A DNA stretch of 58,449 nucleotides from positions 1 to 58,449 of IMG/VR virus record IMGVR_UViG_3300017913_001414. The stretch is one strand, 5' to 3'. The position numbers and the translations under genes are program-made. Positions 20,591-55,048 of this stretch are shown here, piece by piece. Under the pieces are notes generated by a model, which worked only from the letters and a program-made list of their open reading frames with translations, was not told where the DNA came from and did no database searches. The DNA is from a virus. Lineage: Duplodnaviria; Caudoviricetes. Each line of letters opens with the position of its first letter. The first letter of the stretch is position 1.

Positions 20591-23500
20591 ATGGGCATTT
20601 ATAGCGCATATGGTAAAAGTGGTAGGCTCTACAATTTGGGTATTGCTGGTGATGCACCAACACCTCAAGAGCTAGAGAAGATACCGGGGATTCTGGATGA
20701 GTTGGATGCCCAGTATTTTCCCCAACAATCAGCGCCTTTAGTAGAAGAAGATGACGGCACGGCACTTGGCCGTGGTCTTAGTCGTGGTGTGGATATTCTA
20801 CAGGAGGGTTACGGCTCTGCTGTAGAAGGTATCGGTAGCATCATAGGCAACAGAACCATCGAGGACTACGGCAGGGAGGTTGTTGAGGCTCAGAAGAGAG
20901 ACCTTGAAGATGTGCAGCGTGCTGTAGCAACATTCGAGGAAGTCAAAGACCTCGGTACGTTTGCCACATATTTCGGAGAAACCTTAGGCGAGACATCGCC
21001 TCAACTTGCAAGCACTATTGCTGGCTCGATAGCTGGTCAAGCGCTGATTCCTATCCCGGGTGTTGGTGCTGCCATAGGTGGTCTGGCTGCAAATATACCA
21101 TTCTTCTATGGTATGAATCGCGAGGCCCAGAAGGACGCCATCCAAGAGGGGTACAGAACAGAAATGAATGAGGGGGCTGCGGCTCTCACAGCAATTCCTC
21201 AGGCAGCCTTAGACCTTGTTGTTGACCGTCTTCTGGTAGGTTTATCTCCCACCCCGAAACTACTACAAGGTGGTGGCATATTTACTCGTGTTAGTAAGGG
21301 CGTTGGTGCTGGTGCTGCCATCGAAGCGCCTACTGAGGTTGGGCAACAATTACTGGAGCGTTATCAGGCCGGGAAACCGATTGATGACGAGGAGGCAATC
21401 AACGAATACCGTGAAGCGGCCATCGCTGGCGGTCTTGTTGGTGGTACTGTTCGAGGTACAACAAGCGCTTTCGGTGCAGCCGACCCAGAACAAAAGCAAA
21501 AAGATGCAGAATTAAACGAGGACTTAGAAGAGCTAGCTGTTGAGGCTTCTTCTAAGGCTCAGTTCGCCCGTGAATCTATAACAGCGCCGGAGTTGCTGCC
21601 AGCACCTGCACAGGTTGAGGAGCAGGAGATTGTTAATCAGCAGAGACAAGAGGACGCGACAACGACAGAGGAGTTGCTTGAGGCTAAACAGGAGGAGGCA
21701 CAAGAGCAGCAGCAGGAGCAGATAGACCAGTTGGGGTTGGCGGCTGACGAGAAGGCTGCTCTCGCCATGCAGAATGAAAAAGAAGCTGCCACTAAGTATG
21801 AACCTGTAGAGCTAGACACTCTTCCTGAAGAAGAACAGTTCAACATTATAGGCGCTAGGGATGTTCGTGGTGACGCGCTGATTAGCGCCCCAGTAACCAT
21901 AGAAGAGATTGAGAATCTCGTTGGACCAGAGGCAGCGCAGCGCGAAAGAAACAAGCAGAAGCCCCTGTCTCAGGGTGTAGACAACTCAACACCCAAACAG
22001 AGCAGACCATTCCGTCAAGACCAGTATGAGGCGGCGGTTGAGGCTGTCAGAAAAGATGGCAAAGTAAGTATCCCACGTATCGCCCGGGCAGCACGTATCG
22101 AAAGTGATGACGTTGTAAATAATGGGATGGCTAGGGAGCTTCGTTCAGAGCTTATTAGGAAGGGCGTTATTAATGAGGTTGGCGAAAACAAGTATGAGGT
22201 TGCACCAGAGCGCACCGTAGAAGAGGACCCAACCGTCGCCCTAGAGGAGTTGGACTCTGCCTACCAGCAGGAACTAGACCTAGCCCGTGATGAGTACAGG
22301 GCCTTAGAGCAACGCAGACAGGACCTGATAGAACAGAACACACCAGAGGCAACGGCAGAGATAGCCGATGTGCAGCGTGACATGGACAGCTTGGAGGCTG
22401 CCATATCATCAGCAGAGCAGAGCCGACAGACTGTTTCGCAGAGTGTGCAGGACGCCAAAGAAACTCAAGTACCGAAGGAATCTGCCCTCCCAGCCAAAGC
22501 ATCTAACAACGCCAGCCGCGCCGTCAACTCAGAAGTTACCGATAACTATGGGCAGGTTAGGCAGAAGGTAGCCAACAGATTGCGTAAATATCTACGCAGT
22601 CTTGGCCTCACAGATGTAAACTTGGTGACTGCAAATGTTCTTGAGGCTGGTAGGCTGGAGGATGGCACTCTGGTTGAGGGCTTCGAGGAGGCTGGAGAGA
22701 ATGGCAGCCGCATCATTGCTCTGGCTATGGAGATATACGACCCGTCACTGAGCGACACAGAGCTTGAGGCCCGCCTTCGCAGTGTGATGAACCACGAGAT
22801 TATTCACTCGCTAAAAGCGCTTGGCTTGTTTACTGATGCCGAGTTTGCTGCTCTGGTTAAGGCCGCCGAAAACCGTAAGTATGTGGCAATAAAGGGTGGC
22901 AAGGCTGTAGAGCGCAGCTACACATACCTTGACCGTGCAAAGAGACTATATCCCGGCGCTGATTTAGAGTTGCAGCAAGAGGAAGCTGTGGCTGAATTGT
23001 TCCGTGATTGGGCTGACGGCAAAATTAAGCTTGCTGGTCGCCCGAACACACTGTTCCAGCGGATTAAGAAGTTCATCAAGTCTATCTTCAACGCACACAA
23101 TGAAGAGGGTATTGATGGTGCAGACCAGATATTCTCGAACATTGTTACCTCAACCAAAGAGGACCAGATTGGTAGCCGTGCCAGACAGCAAGGCTTAGAA
23201 CGTCAGCAGAGGCTGTACTCCCTGCGCCGCACAAAGTCAGGCCAATATGTTGGCGCACCACAGGGTATTGATTCGCCACAAAAACTGCGCTCACTGCGCC
23301 GTAAGCTTGAGGCTCTCGCTGCTGCTGGTGAAGAAGGCCGCTTCTGGTACGAGCGTAGCGGTCAAGCAATACTAGAAGCTGCTGGCGGCAACAAGAGAGA
23401 AGCAGAGAAGATTGTTCAAGCTATAGCAATCACATCACCATCCACTCCCGTGAAGGATAACTTTGCCTATGCAATTCAAGCTTACGCTGCTTGGCGTGCT

Positions 23501-26500
23501 GGCAAGGAGATTAAGACAGGGCGATTCCCTCAAGCTATGAGCAAGCGCCTTGAAGAACTGTTCAATGGAAAGGACTGGGAGGGTCGTAAGACCAACAACT
23601 TCTACATCAACTTGATGAGAGAGATTGACCCAGAACGTAGTCAAGGCGTTACCATTGATATCTGGATGATGCGTGCTTTGGGTTATGACAGTGAGAATCC
23701 AACAGACGCCCAGTATTCATTCGCTGAAGAAGAGACACTCCGTATTGCGAACAAGTACGGCTGGGAGCCTCAGCAGGCGCAGGCTGCTATTTGGGTAGCG
23801 GCTAAGGCGGCTATGGACGGTAAGCCAGTATCTCAAATGTCATATGACTACTCCACTGCCCTTGAAGAAAATCTTGGTCAGATTAGCTGGGAAAGTATAC
23901 CCGGTGCTACGGCTAATCATATGCCCGAAATGTTTGATGCGCCGATGGAGCAGCAGGCTGAGTATCATGTCGATATATCTAAGGCGTTTTTAGATGATGA
24001 GGGATTTGATATTGCTGCGCGGGAGCTTGGCCTTCTTACGCCCGGTGACTTTGAGGCGCCCGGATACTTCGAAGGCAAGGTAAGCCCCGGAACTCAGACC
24101 GAAGCTGTCATGGCCCGTCAGTACAAAGGCCCAACCTACGGTCAGGTTGACGCCGCCACTGAGGATTTGATTACTGCATATGCTGCTGTTCGTGGAATCC
24201 TAATGAAGCAGGATGGTGTCGGATGGCATCGCCCGTGGTTCGGTGATAAAGTGCGCCGCAAAGACTCTAATGGTGTTGAGATTCGATTGGGCAGGCCTTT
24301 GACTCAAGATGAGACAGCAAGGCTGGCGCAAATCATGAGTGACATAACGGGCCATAGCGAGTACAATCCTATTGGGTCTCGGGATGGTGCGCGTATAATT
24401 AACTTTGATTATGTCGGCACAGAGAACGCAGACTTTCAGTCTCAGGTTGAGCAAGCCCTTGAAGCTATGGAGTTTGACGGAGACCCAGAAGTAGATGCTG
24501 TACGATTTGCAGCGCAAACCGGATATGCCGGTAATGATTGGAGTGTAAATAAAAATGGCGAAGGTTACATTCAGACAGGCCTCGATGGACGACCCTCTCT
24601 TCAGCGGAGAGTTCAAGATATCGTCGAAACCATCCAGTCCAGAATCGATGACATCGATGCAGACTACTCAGAAAAATATGGATGGACAAGAAACAACGAA
24701 GTCAACGCAAACTTCAGGGCCACAGAAGAAGCGCCAGTAGAACCCCAACCTGCTGAGGAAAGTGACAGGGAACTTTCTGATATTGATGAGGGTCTCACAA
24801 GAGACCAGATTGATGACTTGCAGGATGCTCGAAGTGATATCGAGACAGCAGAGCAAGCCCAGCGTAAGTACAGCGTAAACCCGACAAAGCCATTCGCACT
24901 CAATCGTGCGCCAATCAAACGCGATACATATGAGTATGGTCAGATACGCGAAGGTAATCGCTTGGTGCCAGTTGTCTTGCCAGCAGGTAGGCACTTCGAT
25001 GACCAAGATGGGAGCAGCTTCGGATTGCACCACATACAAGAACGCAACCACGACACGGAGTTGCAAGAGGTGTCCAAGTATCCGCGTGTTGAGGAAGCTA
25101 TATACGACTTGCTCGCACGTTGGCGCAGCCAACAACACACAGACGGCTCTGATGTAGTTGGATTCCCACAGGGAAGAAACTTCTACCGCCTAGAGTGGGT
25201 CAACAATACTGGTCGCTCAAAAGTTCCATTGAACTTAGTTCTCCAGAGGGGGCAGACCAAAGACGGCAACGCCATCTATTTTGTTAAGACGTTCTTCCCA
25301 GACATGAATGCCGCGCAACCTCAACAGAGGCAGGCTGGTATGAGGCGGCGCAGCGCCCTGCCCATGACATCTGTGCGCTCATACAGCGTTATCATGCCAG
25401 AGAGACAGAGCAATATTGCGTACAGTCGTGCGGGCAAGCTTATACAAAAGGTAATCGGCAAGCCATTGAAGTTATTTGTTGGTGAGGATAAGGCCCAGAA
25501 ACTGTCTGAGCAGTTCATCACAAACTTCCAAGACAATATGTATCCTGTCGCAAAGCTTATTGATGACCTGAAAGCTGCTGGCGCTAACATCACAGACGCC
25601 CTAGATACATATCTGCAAGAGGAACTGTATCATGGACGGGTCGGCGCTAGGGTCGAAGAGAATCAGAAGAAGTTTTACACGCCGCTTGCCGAGTTGGTTA
25701 GGGATATAAGTATCCCAGCAGCTGTAATAGAAAGAATGTCTTCGTTTAGTGGTTTTGTTAAAGGCTCTTACGAGAACAACAATAGTGCCAAGCTCACTCT
25801 TGCCGAAGCATTTTTGTACGCCCGCCATGCAAAAGAACGCAACGCATATATCAGAGGAATCAACCCGGGTGAGGACTCAGGTTCTGGTATGACTGATGTT
25901 GAGGCTGACAAGATACTTGCGTTTATCTCTGGTCTTGATTCAGAGACTCAGTCCCAGCTTGCTGCTATAGCTGATGCTGCTGATGCCACGATTCAGAATA
26001 CAAATGATATACGTGTGGCCTCTGGCCTAACGCCAGACTTTAATGATGGAAGTCCAGTCACCCTTGAGGATGGCACAGAAGCTGCGCCACCTAGCTTCTC
26101 TTCGTATGTTCCGTTGCGCGGTATCTTAGACCCAGAGAGTGAAGCCACAGAGGAGGCCAGAACAAGCTACGGCAGGGGTGGCGACAGGTTCGGTGTTCGT
26201 GGTCGTGAGGACCGCAGGGCTTTGGGTCGCGGTGAGTACGCAGAGAGCATACTCGCCAACATCATGACGCAAAATCAGAACGCTATTATACGTTCAGAGA
26301 AGAACAATGTGGGCAAGTCTTTCTTGGAGTTGATTAGGCAGAACCCAGAACTGATGGCTCCAGTTGCCCGTGTGCTTGAGAGCCGACCCACCACCCGTGG
26401 TTTGGTAAACGGTACTGTTCGCACAGTCCCAGCCATGATGCCACAAGATGACATACTTGTAGTAAAGGATGGCGGTCAGGAAGTGTATATAGAAATCCTT

Positions 26501-28258
26501 GACCCTCGCATTGCCAAAGCAATGAAGGGTGCAAGCGGTATGTCTACGGAGTCTATGGGTGTTGTTACTCGTGCTATGGGCAAGCTGAACAGATACCTGT
26601 CCAACATCAACACCTCATTCAACCCTGAGTTCTTGATTACTAACTTGGTCCGTGACTTGCAAACTGCCGGTGTTAACTTGGGTCAGTTTGACCAAGACAA
26701 GTTGTCTCGTGAGGTTCTTGGTGGGGTCACTGGTGCGCTGAAGGGAATCAAGCGTTCAATTATCAACGGAGACAATAGCTCTGAGTGGTCGCAAATATTT
26801 GAAGACTTTGTAGCCAATGGTGGCAAGACATCTGCTAACCCCATGACAACGCTGCAAGACCAGCTAAACTCAATCAACGATACTTTGGGCGACATCTCCG
26901 ATGCTGGTGTACGCAAGCAGTGGGGTCGTGTGAAGCGCAGTTTCGTTGGCGATATCTTTAGAGCGCTTGAGAATTACAACACCGTGGTTGAGAACGGTAT
27001 CCGTGTCGCTACATACAAGGCGCTGCTTGACCGTGGGTACACAAAAGAACGTGCGGCGCAGGCAGCTAAAAATGTTACAGTGAACTTTACAAAGGGCGGT
27101 GAGTACAAGACATTCATGAACTCTTGGTCTCTGTTCTACAATGCATCACTGCAAGGTTCGATGGCACTCCTCACGGCTGCTACACGCTCCAAGCGTGTGC
27201 AGAAACTGTGGGCTGGTGTTGTGGTGGCTGGACTTCTGCAAGACCAGTTGAACGCTGCCCTCTCAGAGGAGGACGAGGACGGAGAACTTCAGTACGATAA
27301 GATTCCTGACTATGTTCTTGAGCATAACTTCATACTGCCCGACCCATTCGGTATTACTGAGCGCTCTTACATTAAGATTCCACTGCCATATGGATTAAAT
27401 ATGGCACACAACATTGGTCGAACATTGAGCCGTTCTGGTCGTGGAGAGTACCAGCCGGGCGAAGCAACAAGCACTATTGTTGCGACAATTCTTGAGGCAG
27501 TTAACCCGATGGGCGGACTTGACCCAGATGCAACTGGGTACGGCTTCCTTAACTTTGTTGCCCCGACAATCGCTGACCCGTTTATTGACATCGCAGAGAA
27601 CGAGGACTTTGCTAACAAGCCAGTATATAAAGAGGCATCACAGTTTGGTGTGCCTGCCCCAGATAGTCAGCTTTACTGGTCTACAACCTCGCCATCAGCT
27701 AAGTGGATTACTGATAATCTCAACAGCTTAACAGGTGGTACACCCTCCATGTCTGGTTACATCGACATATCACCAGACATATTGGACTTCTGGTTTGAGT
27801 TTGCAACGGGTGGTGTCGGTAGGTTCGTTCAGCGCACTGCTGAGTTTGGTGCGTCAACCGCACCCAAGATTATTACTGGTGACTTTGAGGACGAGATGGT
27901 TCGGGCGATACCTCTCGCTCGTAAGGTTGTCGGCAGTGTCTCAGACAGAGAAGATACAGAGAACTTTATTAACAACAGAAACGTCATCCTAACGGCACGG
28001 AGAGAGTTGCTTGAGGCAACTCGTGCGGGAGATGTAGCCAGAATAGAGGCCGTAAGAAACAGCTACGCAGATGAACTGGCTATCGCTCCTCGTATGAATG
28101 CTCTCAACAACAGACGTAATCAGTTGCTGCGCCGCCGCAATCAGATTAAAAAAGCGCCGAATATTCCTGAGGCTCAAAAAGAAAAGCTTTTAGAGCGAGT
28201 TAATGAGCAGATACAGGAAGTTGTGCTAAGGGCAAACCAGCTTACTCGTCAGCGTTAA
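20591..28258 (+). CDS. giant polyvalent internal virion protein (zincin HEXXH, glycosylase-like, PBECR-like and LPD38-like domains)
   Basis: 2555 aa; NHEIIH..E motif; WY..AITSP..KT.NF..VTIDIWM..QAAIW; FGLHHI; C-terminal YIKIPLPYG..N.DF...P. Confidence 0.75.
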   Translation: MGIYSAYGKSGRLYNLGIAGDAPTPQELEKIPGILDELDAQYFPQQSAPLVEEDDGTALGRGLSRGVDILQEGYGSAVEGIGSIIGNRTIEDYGREVVEAQKRDLEDVQRAVATFEEVKDLGTFATYFGETLGETSPQLASTIAGSIAGQALIPIPGVGAAIGGLAANIPFFYGMNREAQKDAIQEGYRTEMNEGAAALTAIPQAALDLVVDRLLVGLSPTPKLLQGGGIFTRVSKGVGAGAAIEAPTEVGQQLLERYQAGKPIDDEEAINEYREAAIAGGLVGGTVRGTTSAFGAADPEQKQKDAELNEDLEELAVEASSKAQFARESITAPELLPAPAQVEEQEIVNQQRQEDATTTEELLEAKQEEAQEQQQEQIDQLGLAADEKAALAMQNEKEAATKYEPVELDTLPEEEQFNIIGARDVRGDALISAPVTIEEIENLVGPEAAQRERNKQKPLSQGVDNSTPKQSRPFRQDQYEAAVEAVRKDGKVSIPRIARAARIESDDVVNNGMARELRSELIRKGVINEVGENKYEVAPERTVEEDPTVALEELDSAYQQELDLARDEYRALEQRRQDLIEQNTPEATAEIADVQRDMDSLEAAISSAEQSRQTVSQSVQDAKETQVPKESALPAKASNNASRAVNSEVTDNYGQVRQKVANRLRKYLRSLGLTDVNLVTANVLEAGRLEDGTLVEGFEEAGENGSRIIALAMEIYDPSLSDTELEARLRSVMNHEIIHSLKALGLFTDAEFAALVKAAENRKYVAIKGGKAVERSYTYLDRAKRLYPGADLELQQEEAVAELFRDWADGKIKLAGRPNTLFQRIKKFIKSIFNAHNEEGIDGADQIFSNIVTSTKEDQIGSRARQQGLERQQRLYSLRRTKSGQYVGAPQGIDSPQKLRSLRRKLEALAAAGEEGRFWYERSGQAILEAAGGNKREAEKIVQAIAITSPSTPVKDNFAYAIQAYAAWRAGKEIKTGRFPQAMSKRLEELFNGKDWEGRKTNNFYINLMREIDPERSQGVTIDIWMMRALGYDSENPTDAQYSFAEEETLRIANKYGWEPQQAQAAIWVAAKAAMDGKPVSQMSYDYSTALEENLGQISWESIPGATANHMPEMFDAPMEQQAEYHVDISKAFLDDEGFDIAARELGLLTPGDFEAPGYFEGKVSPGTQTEAVMARQYKGPTYGQVDAATEDLITAYAAVRGILMKQDGVGWHRPWFGDKVRRKDSNGVEIRLGRPLTQDETARLAQIMSDITGHSEYNPIGSRDGARIINFDYVGTENADFQSQVEQALEAMEFDGDPEVDAVRFAAQTGYAGNDWSVNKNGEGYIQTGLDGRPSLQRRVQDIVETIQSRIDDIDADYSEKYGWTRNNEVNANFRATEEAPVEPQPAEESDRELSDIDEGLTRDQIDDLQDARSDIETAEQAQRKYSVNPTKPFALNRAPIKRDTYEYGQIREGNRLVPVVLPAGRHFDDQDGSSFGLHHIQERNHDTELQEVSKYPRVEEAIYDLLARWRSQQHTDGSDVVGFPQGRNFYRLEWVNNTGRSKVPLNLVLQRGQTKDGNAIYFVKTFFPDMNAAQPQQRQAGMRRRSALPMTSVRSYSVIMPERQSNIAYSRAGKLIQKVIGKPLKLFVGEDKAQKLSEQFITNFQDNMYPVAKLIDDLKAAGANITDALDTYLQEELYHGRVGARVEENQKKFYTPLAELVRDISIPAAVIERMSSFSGFVKGSYENNNSAKLTLAEAFLYARHAKERNAYIRGINPGEDSGSGMTDVEADKILAFISGLDSETQSQLAAIADAADATIQNTNDIRVASGLTPDFNDGSPVTLEDGTEAAPPSFSSYVPLRGILDPESEATEEARTSYGRGGDRFGVRGREDRRALGRGEYAESILANIMTQNQNAIIRSEKNNVGKSFLELIRQNPELMAPVARVLESRPTTRGLVNGTVRTVPAMMPQDDILVVKDGGQEVYIEILDPRIAKAMKGASGMSTESMGVVTRAMGKLNRYLSNINTSFNPEFLITNLVRDLQTAGVNLGQFDQDKLSREVLGGVTGALKGIKRSIINGDNSSEWSQIFEDFVANGGKTSANPMTTLQDQLNSINDTLGDISDAGVRKQWGRVKRSFVGDIFRALENYNTVVENGIRVATYKALLDRGYTKERAAQAAKNVTVNFTKGGEYKTFMNSWSLFYNASLQGSMALLTAATRSKRVQKLWAGVVVAGLLQDQLNAALSEEDEDGELQYDKIPDYVLEHNFILPDPFGITERSYIKIPLPYGLNMAHNIGRTLSRSGRGEYQPGEATSTIVATILEAVNPMGGLDPDATGYGFLNFVAPTIADPFIDIAENEDFANKPVYKEASQFGVPAPDSQLYWSTTSPSAKWITDNLNSLTGGTPSMSGYIDISPDILDFWFEFATGGVGRFVQRTAEFGASTAPKIITGDFEDEMVRAIPLARKVVGSVSDREDTENFINNRNVILTARRELLEATRAGDVARIEAVRNSYADELAIAPRMNALNNRRNQLLRRRNQIKKAPNIPEAQKEKLLERVNEQIQEVVLRANQLTRQR

Positions 28259-39535: not shown

Positions 39536-40693
39536 TCAAACCTCCATTTGTAGATAAGTTGTTTCACCGAATGGTGCTTCTGGGGTGCGGTCATTCGTGC
39601 CGACCCACAGGACAGGATAGTCGGGTGCATCATTCGGATAGTCATTGACCTCAAGGTCAGACAGGTAGACAAGATTGTCCACCGCCAGTTGGTGTTCGGC
39701 AATGTAGTTGAACACTGGCCTGACCCGTGTGCCGCCTCGACCTTTGGCAGAAAAGTTATCGATAACTTCTCCCTGCTCATAGGTCTTGGTGTATTGCACC
39801 TCAGTGTCACAGGCAATCACAGTGATGCTGCGCGGTGACAGTTCATCACTGATGGCGTTCATCTCACCAAGAAAGTGAGCCAGTTCATTAGCCGATACTG
39901 ACGCACTGGTATCAATGGCAATCACCACATCGCCAGTGCCAATCTTGTCAACCGAAGGCATCACCATTTGATACTGGTGGTATGCCTTGCGGTGTGGGCG
40001 CGACCATGAGTAGTCATCTGGCTGGTCACCACCAACAAAGCGGCGCAGCACATCACGCCAGTCAACCTGTGACCGCTTCATGCGGTCAACCAGTTGCTCG
40101 ATTTGCGCTGGCAGCTTGCCGACAGCTTTGGCAGATGCGGCGGCGATAAACACCTTTTGCTCCACATCAGCCTCAGCCATCTTTTTCTCAGCGTCAGACA
40201 GTTCCGACCCGTCAGGATTGGTCATGTCCAACACCATGCCCCAGCCAGCAGCATTGTCACTGGCGTCAGTTGGAAGGCGGTCATAGATAGCCTCAGCCGA
40301 CAGGTCAGCATACTGCTTGTCATGAAGGCCGCCCTCAGGGAGAACAAAGGCAGGCGTATAGTCGCCGTTCTTATCTTTCTCCTGAGCAGACAGAATGATG
40401 TCATTGATGGCATAGTCACAGGCCACATTCCATCTGTCCTTGTCGCGCTCACCGCGCCGCAGCATGTGCTTGAAAACGACATGCAGCACCTCGTGAGCAA
40501 TCACACCACGGATTTCTTCCTCAGTGTGTTCGTCAATGAAACCAGCGGAGTAGAATATACTACGCCCGTCAGTTGCCATTGTTTCTATCTCTTGGCTCTC
40601 AACGAAAGCGAGAGATAGGGCGCACGAACCAAAGAACGGCTGGCGTATGAGCAAGCGCGTCTTGGCTCGTGCAATCTTATCGGATGCGTTCAT
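39536..40693 (-). CDS. metallopeptidase-VWA protein (DUF2201-like)
   Basis: TMATDG, HEVLH (HEXXH), WN.ACDYAIN, MIDAS DTSAS, GRGGT. Confidence 0.9.
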   Translation of the reverse strand: MNASDKIARAKTRLLIRQPFFGSCALSLAFVESQEIETMATDGRSIFYSAGFIDEHTEEEIRGVIAHEVLHVVFKHMLRRGERDKDRWNVACDYAINDIILSAQEKDKNGDYTPAFVLPEGGLHDKQYADLSAEAIYDRLPTDASDNAAGWGMVLDMTNPDGSELSDAEKKMAEADVEQKVFIAAASAKAVGKLPAQIEQLVDRMKRSQVDWRDVLRRFVGGDQPDDYSWSRPHRKAYHQYQMVMPSVDKIGTGDVVIAIDTSASVSANELAHFLGEMNAISDELSPRSITVIACDTEVQYTKTYEQGEVIDNFSAKGRGGTRVRPVFNYIAEHQLAVDNLVYLSDLEVNDYPNDAPDYPVLWVGTNDRTPEAPFGETTYLQMEV

Positions 40694-40701
40694 GCAACCT
40701 C

Positions 40702-41721
40702 CTACAGGACTAGTGATTTACCCTTAGTCAAAATCCATTGCTTGACCGCCTCAGCGCGTTTCAACTCAGGGTCGCGGTTCAGCGCATCCTTGATGGTGAA
40801 GGCCGCAAATTCCTGATGCGGTAAGCGGTTGAGATATTTGACCACATTGGCAATGTTCGACTTGTTGGCCTTGTGAGCCAGCGCAGCGCAGATGGCATAG
40901 CCGATGGACGGGTCTTCTGAGACCTCAGCCGTGTCGGGGTTTGCAATCAGCTTGTCGATATCTGGGCAGGTCTCATAGACACGCAGGAAGCCGACAAAAT
41001 CAGCCGCCGCACCCTGTCCAACCTGACCAGCCAGTGCCTCATTCTGACAGGTGCTGTCCAGCTTCCATTGCAGGACGCTAGACACACGCTCCCATGAGCG
41101 AGGTGAGGGACACGCATTTGCATCGCGGTCAAACTTGTGCAGGAACTCAGGGCGAAAGCGCAGGAAGGCGCAGACGCGAGGGTCTATCTGCTTGCTGTTG
41201 AAATAACCGACAGTGTCCTCAAGGTCAGCCTCGACCTCTAGGAACATCAGGCGGTCACGCAGGTGTGTGGGCATCTGGTTCGTGCCAGCCTTGTCGCTGG
41301 TGCGGTTACCAGCCGCCACAATCACCCAGCCATCTGGCAGGTGGTGTTGGCCTACACGCCGTTCATTGACGATTTGTGCCGCGATATTCTGATTGGCAAC
41401 AGGGGCTTGGGGCAATTCGTCTAGGAACAAAATACCTTCGCCATCTGCTGGCATCCAGTCAGGACGGGCGCGATACATGGTCTCGCCATCTTTGTTGGGT
41501 AACACCCAGCCAGCCAATTCGCCAGCGTCATACTGAGCCAGCGACACGATGCGGCAGTCAACGCCACGCGCATCTGCAACATCTTGGATGATGGTTGTCT
41601 TGCCCAAGCCTGCGCCGCCCACAAGGTACGGCACGACATACTGGGCATCCCGCCCGTCAGTGATTGACAGGTTGCTGTCGATTGAAGCCTCGACAATGGC
41701 TTTTGCTTGTGAAAGTTTCAT
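40702..41721 (-). CDS. MoxR-like AAA+ ATPase
   Basis: Walker A GGAGLGKT, Walker B LFLDE, AAGNR..D.AG, L.DR, PSPRSWE. Confidence 0.92.
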   Translation of the reverse strand: MKLSQAKAIVEASIDSNLSITDGRDAQYVVPYLVGGAGLGKTTIIQDVADARGVDCRIVSLAQYDAGELAGWVLPNKDGETMYRARPDWMPADGEGILFLDELPQAPVANQNIAAQIVNERRVGQHHLPDGWVIVAAGNRTSDKAGTNQMPTHLRDRLMFLEVEADLEDTVGYFNSKQIDPRVCAFLRFRPEFLHKFDRDANACPSPRSWERVSSVLQWKLDSTCQNEALAGQVGQGAAADFVGFLRVYETCPDIDKLIANPDTAEVSEDPSIGYAICAALAHKANKSNIANVVKYLNRLPHQEFAAFTIKDALNRDPELKRAEAVKQWILTKGKSLVL

Positions 41722-41745
41722 GTAACTTTACCTCCGTTCATGAAT

Positions 41746-41799
41746 TGCTGTTTCGACCTAGTCGGTCTCATCAGTGCAGGTCACTACCTACAGACAGCA
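41746..41799 (-). ncRNA. type III hammerhead ribozyme (HH1)
   Basis: RNA: UGCUGU-C^-UGUAGGU AGUG ACCUGCA-CUGAUGA-GACC GACUA GGUC-GAA-ACAGCA; full core and three stems; predicted cut between 41793 and 41792. Confidence 0.93.
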
Positions 41800-41800
41800 G

Positions 41801-41824
41801 GCAGGGCGACCTAAGCCGCCCCGC
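41801..41824 (-). other. GC-rich hairpin immediately 5' of HH1
   Basis: GCGGGGCGGC-UUAG-GUCGCCCUGC; no U-tract. Confidence 0.7.
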
Positions 41825-41833
41825 CCGTTCTCA

Positions 41834-42238
41834 CTAAGAGACCGCTACCGCGCTCTCCAGTTGAGCCTCAATCTTCTGCACATCTTCAGCGAGTTTTTCG
41901 GTTGCCTCGACAACAGCGTCCAGTGCAGACATGTCGGTGCGGGGCAAACCCAAGCGCTTGATTACACCAGCAGGGAAGTGCCGTGCTGGGTGCAGTGCAA
42001 CCCGATGGGCTTTCGTGATGACGCTAGCGAGTGCCGTTGAAAGCACGTTGTAGCTTATCTCGAAGCCGCCCAAGCTATCGGCGTAGATAACGCCGAAGTC
42101 ATCTTCGGGGTCTAGCCAGTCGCCAGCCACAAAGTGAGCAACCTCATAGTGCCGAATTTGCACATCAAAGTTTGCATCTTTGTTCTCGATGACAGCGAGA
42201 TAGAATTTGTTGGCGAGTGGGATTGTGATTTGAGCCAT
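41834..42238 (-). CDS. hypothetical early protein flanked by two hammerheads
   Basis: Start corrected to MAQITIP after a GGAGGU RBS. Confidence 0.75.
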   Translation of the reverse strand: MAQITIPLANKFYLAVIENKDANFDVQIRHYEVAHFVAGDWLDPEDDFGVIYADSLGGFEISYNVLSTALASVITKAHRVALHPARHFPAGVIKRLGLPRTDMSALDAVVEATEKLAEDVQKIEAQLESAVAVS

Positions 42239-42267
42239 GTGAACCTCCGAATGTTTCATGGAACTTT

Positions 42268-42322
42268 TTGCTGTTTCGGCATATTAGCCTCATCAGTGCG
42301 GGTCACTACCCGCAGACAGCAA
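42268..42322 (-). ncRNA. type III hammerhead ribozyme (HH2)
   Basis: RNA: UUGCUGU-C^-UGCGGGU AGUG ACCCGCA-CUGAUGA-GGC UAAUAU GCC-GAA-ACAGCAA; predicted cut between 42315 and 42314. Confidence 0.93.
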
Positions 42323-42352
42323 GCGGGGCAGCCAGAGGGATAGCCGCCCCGC
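42323..42352 (-). other. GC-rich hairpin immediately 5' of HH2
   Basis: GCGGGGCGGCUA-loop-UGGCUGCCCCGC. Confidence 0.7.
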
Positions 42353-42358
42353 CCGTTG

Positions 42359-43024
42359 TTACTCAGCCGCGAAAGCCTCGACAACGTCTTCGACAGTGTC
42401 GGCTTCCTCAGCAGCAGCCTGAGCCGCAGCGCGAATGTCATGCTTGCGATGCACCGCATCGGTCAGCTTGGCAACGAAAGCAGCCAGTGCTTCCAACTCA
42501 TCATTGCGGTCATCAAAGCCGTTGAGCAGCGCAGCAGCCTCGCTGATATTGCCAGTCTTGGTCTCGCGACCAACAACCTTTTCGACAAGCAAATCTTCCT
42601 GAGATTTCTCATCATCACCGCAAACCAGCTTGCGAAGCTTGGCCTCGCTGGTCACCTCAGCCTGCTCGAATGCTTCAAGCACAGCGTCAGCAGTCACGTT
42701 AGTGCCTTCGCCAGTTGAGAAGCCGAAGTAGCGCACAGCCGCTTGACTGTTCTCGACATACTTTTTGATGGTTGCAGGCTTGAGGCCGCAATCAATCTCA
42801 AGCAAATCGCGAATGTCTTTGGCGATGGACACGGGCAGCTTGCCCTTAGCTGTCCATTCGTTCTTGCACATTTCAGCAATCAGGTCTGCATAACACGCAA
42901 CCTTCAGCACGTTGGCTTGGTCAGTGTTGGCTGCATTGTCAGCACGAAGCGTTGCAATGCCACCCTCACGATTTGCGATGTTGTCCAGAATGTCCTGCTC
43001 GAATGAAAGAGTGAATTTAGTCAT
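42359..43024 (-). CDS. acidic helical hypothetical protein, first early gene
   Basis: 221 aa, A/E/D-rich; GGAGGU RBS; lies between HH3 and HH2. Confidence 0.8.
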   Translation of the reverse strand: MTKFTLSFEQDILDNIANREGGIATLRADNAANTDQANVLKVACYADLIAEMCKNEWTAKGKLPVSIAKDIRDLLEIDCGLKPATIKKYVENSQAAVRYFGFSTGEGTNVTADAVLEAFEQAEVTSEAKLRKLVCGDDEKSQEDLLVEKVVGRETKTGNISEAAALLNGFDDRNDELEALAAFVAKLTDAVHRKHDIRAAAQAAAEEADTVEDVVEAFAAE

Positions 43025-43046
43025 GGTGTAACCTCCGATTGGTAAA

Positions 43047-43099
43047 CTCTGTTTCGGCCTTTAGGCCTCATCAGGGGCAGCACACACTGCCCGACAGAG
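43047..43099 (-). ncRNA. type III hammerhead ribozyme (HH3)
   Basis: RNA: CUCUGU-C^-GGGCAG UGUGUG CUGCCC-CUGAUGA-GGCC UAAA GGCC-GAA-ACAGAG; predicted cut between 43093 and 43092. Confidence 0.94.
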
Positions 43100-43261
43100 C
43101 CTTGCCGCCGTTGGACTGTAATCAAACGTGTACCTCAGGACGGGTGGAAGATTAGGTTGGCTAGCATCACCTGAGGGTCTCTCACCCCAGCAGCTAGCGA
43201 GAGCCTGTCTCGCCTTGTTGTTGCGCTTCGTTTTTGGGCAGCGTCCCCATCGGATGACCAT

Positions 43262-43300
43262 TATGTACCGCACCTAGATTTTACAGTCAACACTTTTTTT
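43262..43300 (-). promoter_or_regulatory. sigma70-like early promoter with UP-like A tract
   Basis: Minus strand AAAAAAAGTG-TTGACT-17 nt-TACATA. Confidence 0.6.
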
Positions 43301-43435
43301 ACACCTGTTACAATGCAGGGTGAGTAAGGGTTTGCGGCGATAGTAAATTGTTCCATGTAACTTTTTTTGATACACTGGTGACAGAATTGACGGGGTAAAA
43401 TCCCGCACCAAGCGAAGCGCATGGAAGGCGATACA

Positions 43436-43894
43436 ATGGCTAAGGGTAATAAACCAAATCACCTGTCACTGGTGGCAGATAACCTAACAGGGAAGCAAGA
43501 AGCCTTTGCTCAGAAAGTAGCAGCAGGGGCAGTGCTGTCAGATGCCTACAGGGAAGCCTATGAGGCAGAGAATATGAAGGATAGCAGCATATGGACTGAG
43601 GCCTGCAAGCTAGCGCAGCACCCAAAGGTCTCCCATAGGATTAAAGCTATTCAGGCTGATATTGAGGCAGACCGCCGCACGAGAGAGGCTAGGCGAGAGG
43701 AATACGTTTTGAAAATGCTTCAGGCGGAGGCAGAAGGGGCTGAGACAGACGGGGCAAGGGTTCGTGCGCTGGAATTACTGGGCAAGACCATTGGCATGTT
43801 CACCGACAGGGTTGAGACCGATGACCAAACAGAGCGCAGCGCGGCAGACATTGAGGCTGAGATTCGCAGGACGCTAGCGAGGCTGGGGGATTGA
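43436..43894 (+). CDS. terS: terminase small subunit
   Basis: LT.KQE.FA, AY..AY, A.KL..HPKV..RI, ALELLGK..GMFTDRVE. Confidence 0.85.
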   Translation: MAKGNKPNHLSLVADNLTGKQEAFAQKVAAGAVLSDAYREAYEAENMKDSSIWTEACKLAQHPKVSHRIKAIQADIEADRRTREARREEYVLKMLQAEAEGAETDGARVRALELLGKTIGMFTDRVETDDQTERSAADIEAEIRRTLARLGD

Positions 43895-46562: not shown

Positions 46563-46686
46563 GTATCTCGTAACGCTGCAAATCGGCTTTATGGGTTTTA
46601 TGATTGGTTGGGCTACGCCACGAGGGAAGTACCTGAAGGCGGTGCAGCTTCGCGCACTCCGTTGGCTGATTCACTTCTTTAAGTAA
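46540..46686 (+). CDS. 48-aa membrane peptide (not in ORF track)
   Basis: GAGG RBS; hydrophobic segment and basic tail; TAA overlaps the TerL ATG. Confidence 0.55.
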   Translation: MMENNLAEYLVTLQIGFMGFMIGWATPRGKYLKAVQLRALRWLIHFFK

Positions 46687-53539: not shown

Positions 53540-54445
53540 ATGGCAATTTCACGCGCACAACTATTGAAAGAACTGCTGCCGGGTCTTAATGCCCTGTTCG
53601 GCCTTGAGTACGAAAAGTACGAAAACGAACATGCAGAAATCTATGAAACCGAAAACTCAGAGCGTAGCTTCGAAGAAGAAGTGAAACTGTCTGGCTTCGG
53701 TGCCGCTCCGGTCAAGCCGGAAGGTTCTGCTATCGCATTTGATTCAGCACAAGAATCTTTCACAGCCCGTTACAATCACGAAACGATTGGCATGGGTTTC
53801 TCCGTCACCGAAGAAGCAATGGAAGACAACCTGTACGATGCACTTTCTGCTCGTTACACGAAAGCACTGGCTCGCGCTATGGCTTACACGAAACAGGTTA
53901 AAGCTGCCAACTTGCTGAACAATGGTTTCACCACGTTCAACTCCGGCGACTCTGTCACACTCTTCAGCACAGCACACCCGACTGTCGCTGGTGGCAATAA
54001 CTCTAACCGTCCGTCAACGGACTCTGACCTGAACGAGACCTCACTCGAGCAGGCTGTGATTGATATCGCTGCCTTCACTGATGAGCGTGGTCTTCTGGTT
54101 GCGGCTCGCCCGCGCAAACTGATTGTGCCACCGGCACTGATGTTTGTTGCTACTCGCCTGCTGCAAACTGAACTGCGTACAGGTACCGCTGACAATGACA
54201 TCAACGCCCTTCGCACCAACGGTTCGATTCCGGAAGGTTTCCGCGTCAATCACTACCTGACTGACACCGATGCCTTCTTCATCACCACCGATGTGCCGAA
54301 TGGCATGAAGCACTTTGTCCGTACTCCGATGACCACATCGATGGACGGTGACTTCGACACAGGTAATGTCCGCTATAAAGCCCGTGAGCGTTATAGCTTT
54401 GGCGTATCTGACCCGCTTGGTATTTACGGTTCGCCGGGTGCCTAA
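53540..54445 (+). CDS. major capsid protein
   Basis: MAISRAQLLKELLPGLNALFGLEY...DFDTGNVRYKARERYSFG.SD; strong codon bias; followed by a terminator. Confidence 0.9.
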   Translation: MAISRAQLLKELLPGLNALFGLEYEKYENEHAEIYETENSERSFEEEVKLSGFGAAPVKPEGSAIAFDSAQESFTARYNHETIGMGFSVTEEAMEDNLYDALSARYTKALARAMAYTKQVKAANLLNNGFTTFNSGDSVTLFSTAHPTVAGGNNSNRPSTDSDLNETSLEQAVIDIAAFTDERGLLVAARPRKLIVPPALMFVATRLLQTELRTGTADNDINALRTNGSIPEGFRVNHYLTDTDAFFITTDVPNGMKHFVRTPMTTSMDGDFDTGNVRYKARERYSFGVSDPLGIYGSPGA

Positions 54446-54470
54446 GCATTAAAAGTTATTTAGAACTTTT

Positions 54471-54500
54471 GGGGCGGTCCTTCGGGGCCGCCCTTTTTTT
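54471..54500 (+). terminator. intrinsic terminator after the MCP
   Basis: GGGCGGTCC-TTCG-GGGCCGCCC followed by a T-run. Confidence 0.9.
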
Positions 54501-54583
54501 ATTTGTCAACAAGTGGTACAATGACCTGTTCCTTGACAGTCGCATGAGGCGATTGACAACAACCCAAGACAAGGAGATTGACA

Positions 54584-55048
54584 ATGGGTCAAACTACTTT
54601 TTCAGGTCCGGTTCGTTCTGAGCGCGGATTTACAGCAGTTGGTTCAAACGCTGTAGTTAATATCACAGCAGAAACAACTCTTACATATGCAGACCATGTT
54701 GGCCGCATCATTGAAATCAATGACGCAGACGGCGCGGTTACGCTTCCCTCAATTACTTCAGACACTATTGGTGCAAAGTACACGTTCTTTGTTGGTACAG
54801 ACGCAACTGACCTTGACATCAAAACTGATGGCACGGACAAGTTCTTAGGTTCTGTTAGTGTTATTGGAGCAACCACCGCTGGCTTTGTGCCGGGTGCAAA
54901 CAATGATGTTATCTCAATGAACGGCGGCACCACTGGTGGTGACAAAGGCTCGTATGTAGAGGTCACCGCATTGGCTACCGCTGAATATTTAGTTCAGGGT
55001 GTTCTGGTTGGCGCGGGTACCGTAGCTACACCTTTTGCTGATAGCTAA
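54584..55048 (+). CDS. virion structural protein
   Basis: MGQTTFSGPVRS start; ATPFADS end; AAGGAG RBS. Confidence 0.75.
   Translation: MGQTTFSGPVRSERGFTAVGSNAVVNITAETTLTYADHVGRIIEINDADGAVTLPSITSDTIGAKYTFFVGTDATDLDIKTDGTDKFLGSVSVIGATTAGFVPGANNDVISMNGGTTGGDKGSYVEVTALATAEYLVQGVLVGAGTVATPFADS

Follow-up and report, generated by a model that had tools for sequence, protein, structure and literature searches.

The window analysed here is the entire virus record IMGVR_UViG_3300017913_001414 of IMG/VR (Duplodnaviria; Caudoviricetes), a genome of 58,449 bases that is 99% complete. Three type III hammerhead ribozymes, HH1, HH2 and HH3, lie within 1.36 kb on the minus strand of this record, which is the sense strand of a four-gene operon, and one of them precedes each of the first three genes. 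As judged from their sequences, the three elements are bona fide hammerhead motifs. The best explanation of their arrangement, and one that is considered probable, is that they are active and cut the operon transcript co-transcriptionally into gene-sized mRNAs that end in hairpins. What is new here is a rule for these hairpins, which abut the upstream side of HH2 and HH3 and are absent from HH1.

Three hammerheads at the head of the operon

An earlier note on this DNA had placed three type III hammerheads on the minus strand, and had listed their stems and predicted cleavage sites. The three elements were recovered with the Rfam model for type III hammerheads, Hammerhead_3 (RF00008), with the following bit scores and expectation values (E):

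HH1: 43046..43100, minus strand; type III hammerhead; RF00008 46.7 bits, E 3.8e-7; predicted cut 43093/43092, after C43093
HH2: 42268..42322, minus strand; type III hammerhead; RF00008 46.9 bits, E 3.5e-7; predicted cut 42315/42314, after C42315
HH3: 41745..41800, minus strand; type III hammerhead; RF00008 39.4 bits, E 4.7e-5; predicted cut 41793/41792, after C41793

In a scan by E, these are the only ribozyme matches in the 58,449 bases and each covers the full length of the model (positions 1-54 of 54). The same three RF00008 matches were returned when the record was searched as a genome. The stems in the earlier note are present in the sequence as it listed them, and its cleavage sites fall at the positions given above. 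A default Rfam scan applies the gathering score, which is 48.5 bits for RF00008. Such a scan misses HH1, HH2 and HH3 because their scores are lower, and it reports no hammerhead, only a Mu-gpT-DE RNA elsewhere in the genome. The bare core pattern (CTGATGA, 6-30 nucleotides (nt), GAAAC) occurs three times against 0.17 occurrences expected, and none of 100 shuffled sequences reached three. In addition, the operon head has just three long spacers, and each of them holds one of the elements, on the coding strand in every case.

Each element has the type III topology, in which three helices meet at a junction, stems I and II are closed by loops and stem III is open to the flanking sequence. The core segments CUGAUGA and GAA (G12, A13 and A14) are identical in all three copies, without a single core deviation. 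The cleavage triplet is GUC in each, with A15.1 facing U16.1, which is followed by H17. The base pairs beside the core are standard: pair 1.1-2.1 is G-C in HH1 and U-A in both HH2 and HH3, and pair 10.1-11.1 is G-C throughout. These core positions and core-adjacent pairs fit the acceptance criteria of Perreault et al. (PMC3088659). The elements also form the clustered arrangement of phage hammerheads, in which two or more copies on the same strand flank single genes.

When the isolated elements were folded, the minimum free energy (MFE) structure of each was the hammerhead three-way junction, with z-scores of -3.99 (HH1), -3.69 (HH2) and -2.60 (HH3) and an MFE of -25.8 kcal/mol for HH1. By comparison of the sequences, HH3 is a diverged copy of HH2, and the pairing changes in stems I and II are compensatory; it differs by one G-C/A-U swap in stem I, a second such swap in stem II and one C-G to U-G change. 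The loops of HH1 (loop I GUGU, loop II UAAA) fit the common forms of the phage family described below.

The operon and its GC-rich hairpins

Along the minus strand, the order of parts is candidate promoter, leader, HH1, gene 1, hairpin, HH2, gene 2, hairpin, HH3, gene 3 and gene 4. The two GC-rich hairpins, which do not appear in the earlier note, and the remaining parts of the operon are as follows (aa, amino acids; pI, isoelectric point):

43260..43290, minus strand: candidate sigma-70-like promoter, TTGACT, 19-nt spacer, CATAAT, about 160 nt upstream of HH1; a weak assignment made by eye
42359..43024, minus strand: gene 1, 221-aa acidic protein, pI 4.56, no Pfam or PHROG family
42323..42352, minus strand: GC-rich hairpin before HH2, 30 nt, 12 pairs, 6-nt loop, starting 6 nt after the gene 1 stop codon
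41834..42238, minus strand: gene 2, 134-aa protein (ORFan); GGAGG precedes the start at 42238, and an ATG at 42259 lacks GGAGG
41801..41824, minus strand: GC-rich hairpin before HH3, 24 nt, 10 pairs, 4-nt loop
40702..41721, minus strand: gene 3, MoxR-like AAA ATPase, phrog_1297, E 4.4e-80
39536..40693, minus strand: gene 4, DUF2201 protein with a metallopeptidase-like N domain and a VWA-like domain, PF13203 4.4e-44, PF09967 1.3e-25, phrog_1314 7.2e-102

The spacer between genes 1 and 2 (99 nt) holds a hairpin and HH2, and that between genes 2 and 3 (112 nt) holds a hairpin and HH3. Gene 4 starts 8 nt after gene 3, and no ribozyme lies in between. HH1 sits within the 5' leader, where there is no minus-strand gene for approximately 900 nt upstream. 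As a result, the view that the ribozymes punctuate the first three genes stands in that one precedes each of them, but HH1 separates no two genes. The distance from ribozyme to start codon is 22 nt for HH1, 29 nt for HH2 and 23 nt for HH3, in agreement with the 20-30 nt given in the earlier note, and GGAGG leads each start. The ribosome-binding sites are located approximately 10-20 nt past stem III and are not sequestered by it. The candidate promoter, with its 19-nt spacer, is not listed by a consensus promoter scan, which allows spacers of 16-18 nt only.

Each hairpin is separated from stem III of HH2 or HH3 by one unpaired base. The 5' arms of the two hairpins are identical and the 3' arms differ, yet pairing is kept. 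When the 48 nt upstream of each ribozyme were folded, the energies were -7.2 kcal/mol for HH1, -24.5 for HH2 and -25.7 for HH3, and HH1, which lies in the leader with no gene upstream, has no abutting hairpin. Intrinsic (Rho-independent) termination was considered for these hairpins and rejected, because each is followed by the 5' strand of stem III and not by a U-tract. Consistent with this, a scan for terminator-like sites listed none on the minus strand at 42352-42323 or 41824-41801.

Phage hammerheads in IMG/VR

A model built from HH1, HH2 and HH3 (R1) gave 133 matches at E of 0.001 or less, 112 of them distinct, in 82 sources. These sources are 80 listed loci less the one near-identical to the window, plus the window and two earlier loci. 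The listed loci come from an exact pattern with this stem III, which is present in at least 118 stretches of IMG/VR. Twelve listed loci carry two to five hammerheads, and in each of them all copies (39 in total) are on a single strand. Only one of these 39 copies reaches the RF00008 gathering score, and RF00008 is silent on visibly perfect, AT-rich copies even at E up to 1. The gathering score is thus strict for phage copies, and since it misses almost all of them, routine annotation under-reports phage hammerheads.

The 112 distinct copies retain both the core and the pairing. CUGAUGA is present in 101 of the 112 and GAA in all 112. Across the alignment, 94.8% of cells are paired, versus 65.2% in shuffles and 34-49% when the sequences are slid; 15 of 17 pairs have changed on both sides, as have 600 cells, figures that are to be read with the alignment being fitted to the model and part of stem III being fixed by the search pattern. 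The commonest loops are GUGU for loop I and NAAA for loop II. In 86 of the 118 distinct contexts listed, an open reading frame (ORF) of at least 50 codons starts on the same strand within 40 nt downstream of the ribozyme, and in 61 of the 118 an upstream ORF stops 20-39 nt before it.

A hairpin of 7-12 pairs that ends at the base before stem III recurs across the listed contexts. Here, the 48 nt upstream were folded, and a hairpin was counted if it reached -8 kcal/mol or better and ended no more than 4 nt from the ribozyme. By this measure a hairpin is present in 77 of the 118 contexts (62 of them at 0 nt). The same count gave 41 of 236 for random positions and 153 of 610 for windows placed after stop codons. 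The upstream regions were then clustered at 80% identity, resulting in 104 clusters, and an upstream gene end was counted within 80 nt. A hairpin was present in 57 of the 78 clusters with an upstream ORF end versus 8 of the 26 without one (odds ratio 6.1, Fisher p 3e-4). In these clusters the median hairpin is 24 nt long and begins about 8 nt after the stop codon. The rule for intergenic hammerheads of this lineage is therefore that a gene end shortly upstream goes together with an abutting hairpin, and that such hairpins are mostly confined to these places. The window obeys it exactly, as HH2 and HH3 have the hairpin and HH1, in its leader, does not. The recurrent layout of phage hammerheads in IMG/VR is stop codon, hairpin, hammerhead, approximately 20 nt and start codon.

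Near-identical hairpins occupy the 24 nt before hammerheads in a number of otherwise different loci (L084, L101, L102, L058, L054, L065, L075, L103 and others). They share a GUGUC/GACAC-type stem and a UUCAAA-like loop, which suggests either a conserved sub-lineage of the cassette or a site for protein binding.

Relatives of the operon

A search with the ATPase of gene 3 returned 48 IMG/VR loci. RF00008 matched one of these 48 records, a contig 97.4% identical to the window. Between positions 43320 and 41700, this contig differs from the window by 23 substitutions, of which one falls in the 166 nt of ribozyme and none in the hairpins. The single ribozyme change is in loop II of HH1 (UAAA to GAAA); as about two would be expected, this is weak evidence of constraint. 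In 35 loci whose ATPase is 63-77% identical, neither RF00008 nor R1 found a convincing hammerhead, and this negative leans on R1 as well, because RF00008 is insensitive to AT-rich phage copies. In these 35 loci the upstream gene overlaps the ATPase start, so that there is no spacer, and in the close relatives other small genes lie between the 221-aa homologue and the ATPase. The earlier note looked to related phages for conservation of the elements. Conservation fails in these 35 loci, although hammerheads do recur where the operon is more distantly related.

Six of the nine loci whose ATPase is 45-46% identical (L040, L041, L043, L044, L045 and L048) have one hammerhead-like element approximately 1 kb upstream of the ATPase gene. 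These elements are of type III, and their irregularity can be read as a U-U opposition at 10.1/11.1 or as a U inserted on both sides of stem II. Comparison of L041 with L048 shows covariation in stem I, and the activity of the elements is uncertain. Another record of this group carries a type I hammerhead that scores 38.1 bits, above the Rfam cut-off. A search of 50 records with the type II model RF02276 gave one weak match (18.2 bits), which was disregarded. An R1 match upstream of the ATPase gene in L051 (18.8 bits) was considered as a decayed ribozyme and rejected as chance, as it lies inside a conserved coding sequence that is common to L018, L020-L026 and L029.

Approached from the ribozyme side, local tblastn detects homologues of the 221-aa protein, the ATPase or the DUF2201 protein, at 28-67% identity, in 15 of 79 listed loci selected by the pattern, a figure which, with no baseline frequency of the operon in IMG/VR to set it against, does not prove enrichment. 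In these loci a ribozyme may precede the homologue of the 221-aa protein, lie on either side of the DUF2201 gene or follow the ATPase gene, and the positions differ between lineages. In L126, whose ATPase is 67% identical, and in L110, the ribozyme at the head of the operon is of another subtype, in which stem II is almost absent and a complementarity of 4-5 bases between loops I and II could form a pseudoknot. A pseudoknot-type class of hammerheads was described by Perreault et al. (PMC3088659).

At L126:4716-4783 (minus strand), the 3' strand of stem III of the pseudoknot-type ribozyme shares bases with the AGGAG ribosome-binding site of the following gene, which could be unmasked once the RNA is cut and the 5' product leaves. 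In the spacer ahead of the 221-aa homologue, the stretch L126:4325-4396 (minus strand) contains CUGACGA with an extra U after A9, GAAA, GUC and three stems, and folds as a three-way junction (z -2.16). It is a candidate type I hammerhead and no more than that, as neither RF00163 nor the scan by E reports it.

The closest cultured phage by ATPase is Roseobacter phage CRP-7 (MK613349.1, 58,106 bp), at 42% identity. It has a type II hammerhead at 570-633 on the plus strand (RF02276, 50.1 bits versus a cut-off of 37), between gp01 and gp02 at the left genome end and 1.7 kb upstream of the MoxR gene on the same strand. R1 has no match in the whole CRP-7 record. As the hammerhead overlaps the annotated start of gp02 (619), this start may be mis-called. 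Neither "ribozyme" nor "hammerhead" occurs in the description of CRP-7 (PMC6918029) or in PMC12629253. Taken together, the sequences point to an operon, that of the MoxR ATPase and DUF2201 protein in a group of marine phages, in which hammerheads that differ in subtype and topology would have repeatedly been acquired, lost or exchanged.

Homologues of gene 1 lie upstream of the ATPase gene in 44 related loci. Locus searches with the 221-aa and 134-aa proteins singly found the near-identical contig only, and distant homologues of the 221-aa protein were later recovered by local tblastn. A protein atlas places the 221-aa protein in unnamed viral clusters only, and an ArdA-like or DNA-mimic identity, considered for this acidic protein, was rejected as it has no Pfam or PHROG match. 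For gene 2, no relatives are detectable beyond the near-identical contig. The Pfam AAA_5 and AAA matches of gene 3 are weak and under their cut-offs, and its best cultured match is annotated "MoxR family ATPase".

Proposed processing of the transcript and its alternatives

What has been observed is the motifs and how they fold, where they lie with respect to the genes, and that the cassette recurs in other phages. From this we infer that the strand is transcribed as a single unit, that the ribozymes cleave and that the hairpin protects the 3' end. In the proposed mechanism, HH1 would remove a 5' leader of about 150-160 nt, and HH2 and HH3 would part genes 1, 2 and 3. When a hammerhead cleaves, the upstream product ends in a 2',3'-cyclic phosphate and the downstream product begins with a 5'-OH (PMC6765202). 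The downstream RNAs would begin with this 5'-OH at the first pair of the stem I hairpin, with the ribosome-binding site approximately 15-25 nt behind the ribozyme. The RNAs of genes 1 and 2 would end in a strong GC hairpin, an 8-nt tail and the cyclic phosphate. Hairpin and hammerhead would in this way form a two-part punctuation cassette that leaves both ends of the mRNA structured and chemically unusual. The hairpin may guard against 3' exonucleases and the 5'-OH may lower 5'-end-dependent attack by RNase E, so that stability and translation would be uncoupled from neighbouring sequence and no host endonuclease would be needed. The long message is thus probably chopped into single-gene messages with hairpin-protected ends and, from the sequence, self-cleavage of a polycistron appears to be the most economical reading.

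Several findings weigh against this mechanism. The scores of all three elements are below the RF00008 gathering score. When flanks of 60-120 nt are included, nearest-neighbour folding favours structures that lack stem III by up to 2.6 kcal/mol, and the extended upstream hairpin competes for the first bases of the element, which form the 5' strand of stem III. The hammerhead-competent fold is then 0.0-1.5 (HH1), 1.6-2.6 (HH2) and 1.8-2.3 (HH3) kcal/mol above the MFE, a penalty of 0-2.6 kcal/mol that lies inside the error of a folding model which ignores tertiary structure. In HH2 and HH3, loop I (AGUG) and loop II (6 and 5 nt, respectively) are unlike the GUGU/NAAA of the family and unique in the set, and the loop-loop tertiary contact of these two copies, hence their speed at cellular Mg2+, is therefore uncertain. 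The 35 close-relative loci without ribozymes indicate that the operon works without them. All the loci behind the hairpin counts were picked with a single stem III pattern, and their cassettes may be of common descent, perhaps one lineage, so that the counts are not fully independent. The RNA material consists of three short assembled contigs that carry neither strand nor transcript ends and may be DNA carry-over. Finally, the claim in the earlier note that the 5'-OH resists RNase E holds in part: the enzyme is poor on 5'-hydroxylated substrates but can also enter directly at many sites (PMC4191395), and direct entry bypasses the 5' end, so that the protection would be only partial.

The possibility that the elements are inactive relics or chance matches, with no effect on the transcript, is extremely unlikely. 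The low Rfam scores, the close relatives without ribozymes and the atypical loops of HH2 and HH3 would be accommodated by it. It is opposed by the fact that each of the only three long spacers at the operon head holds a full match on the coding strand, against 0.17 core matches expected by chance, by the complete absence of core deviations and, more weakly, by the confinement to a loop of the sole ribozyme change in the 97.4% identical contig. A different proposal is that the unit is a mobile or recombination cassette, which would persist by spreading with, or shuffling, small accessory genes between phages; its conserved core would then serve as recombination microhomology and any benefit to expression would be secondary. 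The spacers before genes 2 and 3 are diverged duplicates that flank a 134-aa ORFan not found elsewhere, close relatives, which are without the ribozymes, have other small genes between the 221-aa homologue and the ATPase, and the positions of the ribozymes in the operon vary by lineage. Hammerheads that flank small, non-conserved ORFs are also described in a review (PMC6155905). This proposal is nevertheless quite improbable: the core is intact in all three copies and nearly so throughout the 112 distinct ones, and the stems covary, which argues for selection on a catalysis-competent RNA and not on DNA homology alone. In addition, the presence of different hammerhead topologies in comparable places argues for a need for cleavage itself.

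The ribozymes could also be insulators that control translation, where cleavage gives each gene a fixed, short 5' untranslated region and frees its ribosome-binding site from upstream sequence, ribosomes and read-through, with stability being secondary. The synthetic RiboJ is an insulator of this kind. In this reading, the main task of the hairpin would be to prevent misfolding between the ribozyme and coding RNA upstream of it. The narrow distance from ribozyme to start codon, the location of HH1 in a leader with nothing upstream to separate, and the AGGAG of L126, which cleavage and release would expose, all favour such a role. The ribosome-binding sites of the window, unsequestered past stem III, do not, and a pure folding role does not predict that the hairpin is tied to an upstream gene end, as it is in the clusters. 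As the leading account this is unlikely, although it is compatible with cleavage into gene-sized mRNAs and does not exclude it. A more speculative outcome, for which we see very little likelihood, is that the gene 2 message is closed into a circular, exonuclease-proof mRNA that carries the ribosome-binding site and the 134-aa ORF. Stem III of HH2 and of HH3 is identical (six pairs), and the 522-nt RNA between the two cuts could rebuild one nicked hammerhead, in which the cyclic-phosphate 3' end pairs with the 5' region of the same RNA. Closure would be by reverse hammerhead ligation or by a host RtcB-type ligase. Gene 1 would be a poorer candidate for a circle, because HH1 (5' half) and HH2 (3' half) have only the inner four pairs in common. 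If true, a circular gene 2 mRNA would be the phage counterpart of viroid and retrozyme circles. Processing of the polycistron into linear, gene-sized mRNAs with hairpin ends remains the preferred explanation.

Genome context and sampling

The plus strand of the window encodes the large terminase, portal, major head and tail proteins and a 2555-aa virion-type protein. Between 28.2 and 46.4 kb, blocks on the minus and plus strands encode an endolysin, a Sak-like annealing protein, an exonuclease, primase/helicase functions and the operon studied here. The earlier note called this operon early, a timing that is plausible from gene content alone.

The same DNA, at 67-99% of sampled words, is present in 17 metagenome runs from seawater, marine, estuary, sediment and biofilm samples, and any part of it in 20 runs from 11 studies. 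Among 24 runs listed, small shares were found in three RNA libraries, each with one contig: 42711-43023, 42547-42776 and 41515-41748. The first two lie within gene 1 and come from two runs of a single study, the third lies in the 5' part of gene 3 and comes from one run, and none crosses a ribozyme. As they are assembled, without ends or strand, they say nothing on cleavage. For DNA similarity to GenBank phages, the region 40700-43300 gave no match.

Four features outside the operon were also recorded:

54531-54586, plus strand, downstream of the major head gene (53540-54445): Mu-gpT-DE RNA (RF03012), with a score equal to the gathering score of that model (49.0 bits, E 2.6e-8); it lies before the following ORF, and its end falls on the ATG of that ORF
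54451-54500, plus strand, directly after the major head gene: strong GC stem followed by a seven-U run, a weak match to sbrA in the scan by E, with the look of a classical intrinsic terminator
20591-28258, plus strand, in the structural block: the 2555-aa protein, whose C-terminal 900 residues match PHROGs of 2800-3900-aa proteins of unknown function (phrog_14770, E 7e-142); it may be an ejected or giant virion protein
43421-43894, plus strand: small-terminase-like gene (phrog_51, E 3.5e-15), alone between two minus-strand blocks and 2.8 kb from the large terminase gene at 46686

Comparison with known systems

In phage T7, host RNase III cuts the early polycistron between genes, and the upstream products end in stable hairpins. 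RNase III is a host protein enzyme that acts at a double-stranded RNA site and leaves a 5'-phosphate and a 3'-OH. The operon of the window resembles the T7 early transcript in having predicted intergenic cut sites in a polycistron and upstream products that would end in hairpins. It differs in that the RNA would cut itself, leaving 5'-OH and 2',3'-cyclic phosphate ends, and it is not a member of the T7 system.

The cultured marine podophage CRP-7 (58.1 kb) is like the window in having a hammerhead upstream of a MoxR ATPase gene on the same strand, and unlike it in that this hammerhead is of type II and single, with no type III copy found by R1. As CRP-7 is cultured and has its hammerhead in the equivalent region, a bench study is possible. 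In the haloviruses HF1 and HF2, a hammerhead variant is located a few nt upstream of a helicase gene, the first ORF of an early polycistron, and in HF2 the early transcript has been mapped to begin no more than 3 nt from the hammerhead site (PMC3088659). The position of HH1 before the first ORF is similar, although HF1 and HF2 are archaeal viruses with a single ribozyme that has a variant core. In Desulfovibrio vulgaris, type II hammerheads near phage-like genes were found to be cleaved in vivo by cyPhyRNA-seq, which captures cyclic-phosphate and 5'-OH ends (PMC8782182). These bacterial hammerheads resemble those of the window in lying beside phage-like genes; they differ in type and in being spread over three sites of the genome instead of one operon, and that paper does not deal with their function.

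The closest precedent is that of Perreault et al. in 2011 (PMC3088659), who described clustered prophage hammerheads that flank single genes or short blocks, proposed that they process transcripts to operon- or gene-length mRNAs, and showed that triple and tandem sets cleave in vitro and in E. coli. The novelty given to the arrangement in the earlier note therefore does not hold; both arrangement and proposed role were published then, and no new principle is claimed here. Reviews of 2017 and 2019 (PMC6155905, PMC6765202) repeat the link to phages and leave function unresolved, with the later one calling the role of bacterial and phage hammerheads still elusive. The abutting upstream hairpin is not mentioned in the main text of PMC3088659, with its supplementary figures S1-S3 outside this statement. 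In full-text literature, supplements aside, no paper joined a ribozyme with DUF2201, or a hammerhead with both twister and von Willebrand. The hairpin rule, the turnover of ribozymes in the MoxR/DUF2201 operon and the CRP-7 copy were not found in the literature examined, the coverage of which was partial, and we do not claim that they are unpublished.

The locus resembles the triple set at ardA of Agrobacterium tumefaciens, in which several hammerheads on the same strand flank single phage genes (PMC3088659). It differs in its genes, which encode a 221-aa acidic protein (not ArdA by Pfam), an ORFan and a MoxR-like ATPase, and in its source, an uncultured marine phage. Set beside these systems, the locus is a clean and compact example, in which a predicted leader cut is followed by two intergenic ones. 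From the survey, the existing hypothesis can be put more sharply, as three rules open to testing: the hairpin goes with the end of an upstream gene, a start codon follows within approximately 40 nt, and the hammerheads of the MoxR/DUF2201 operon of a group of marine phages turn over between lineages.

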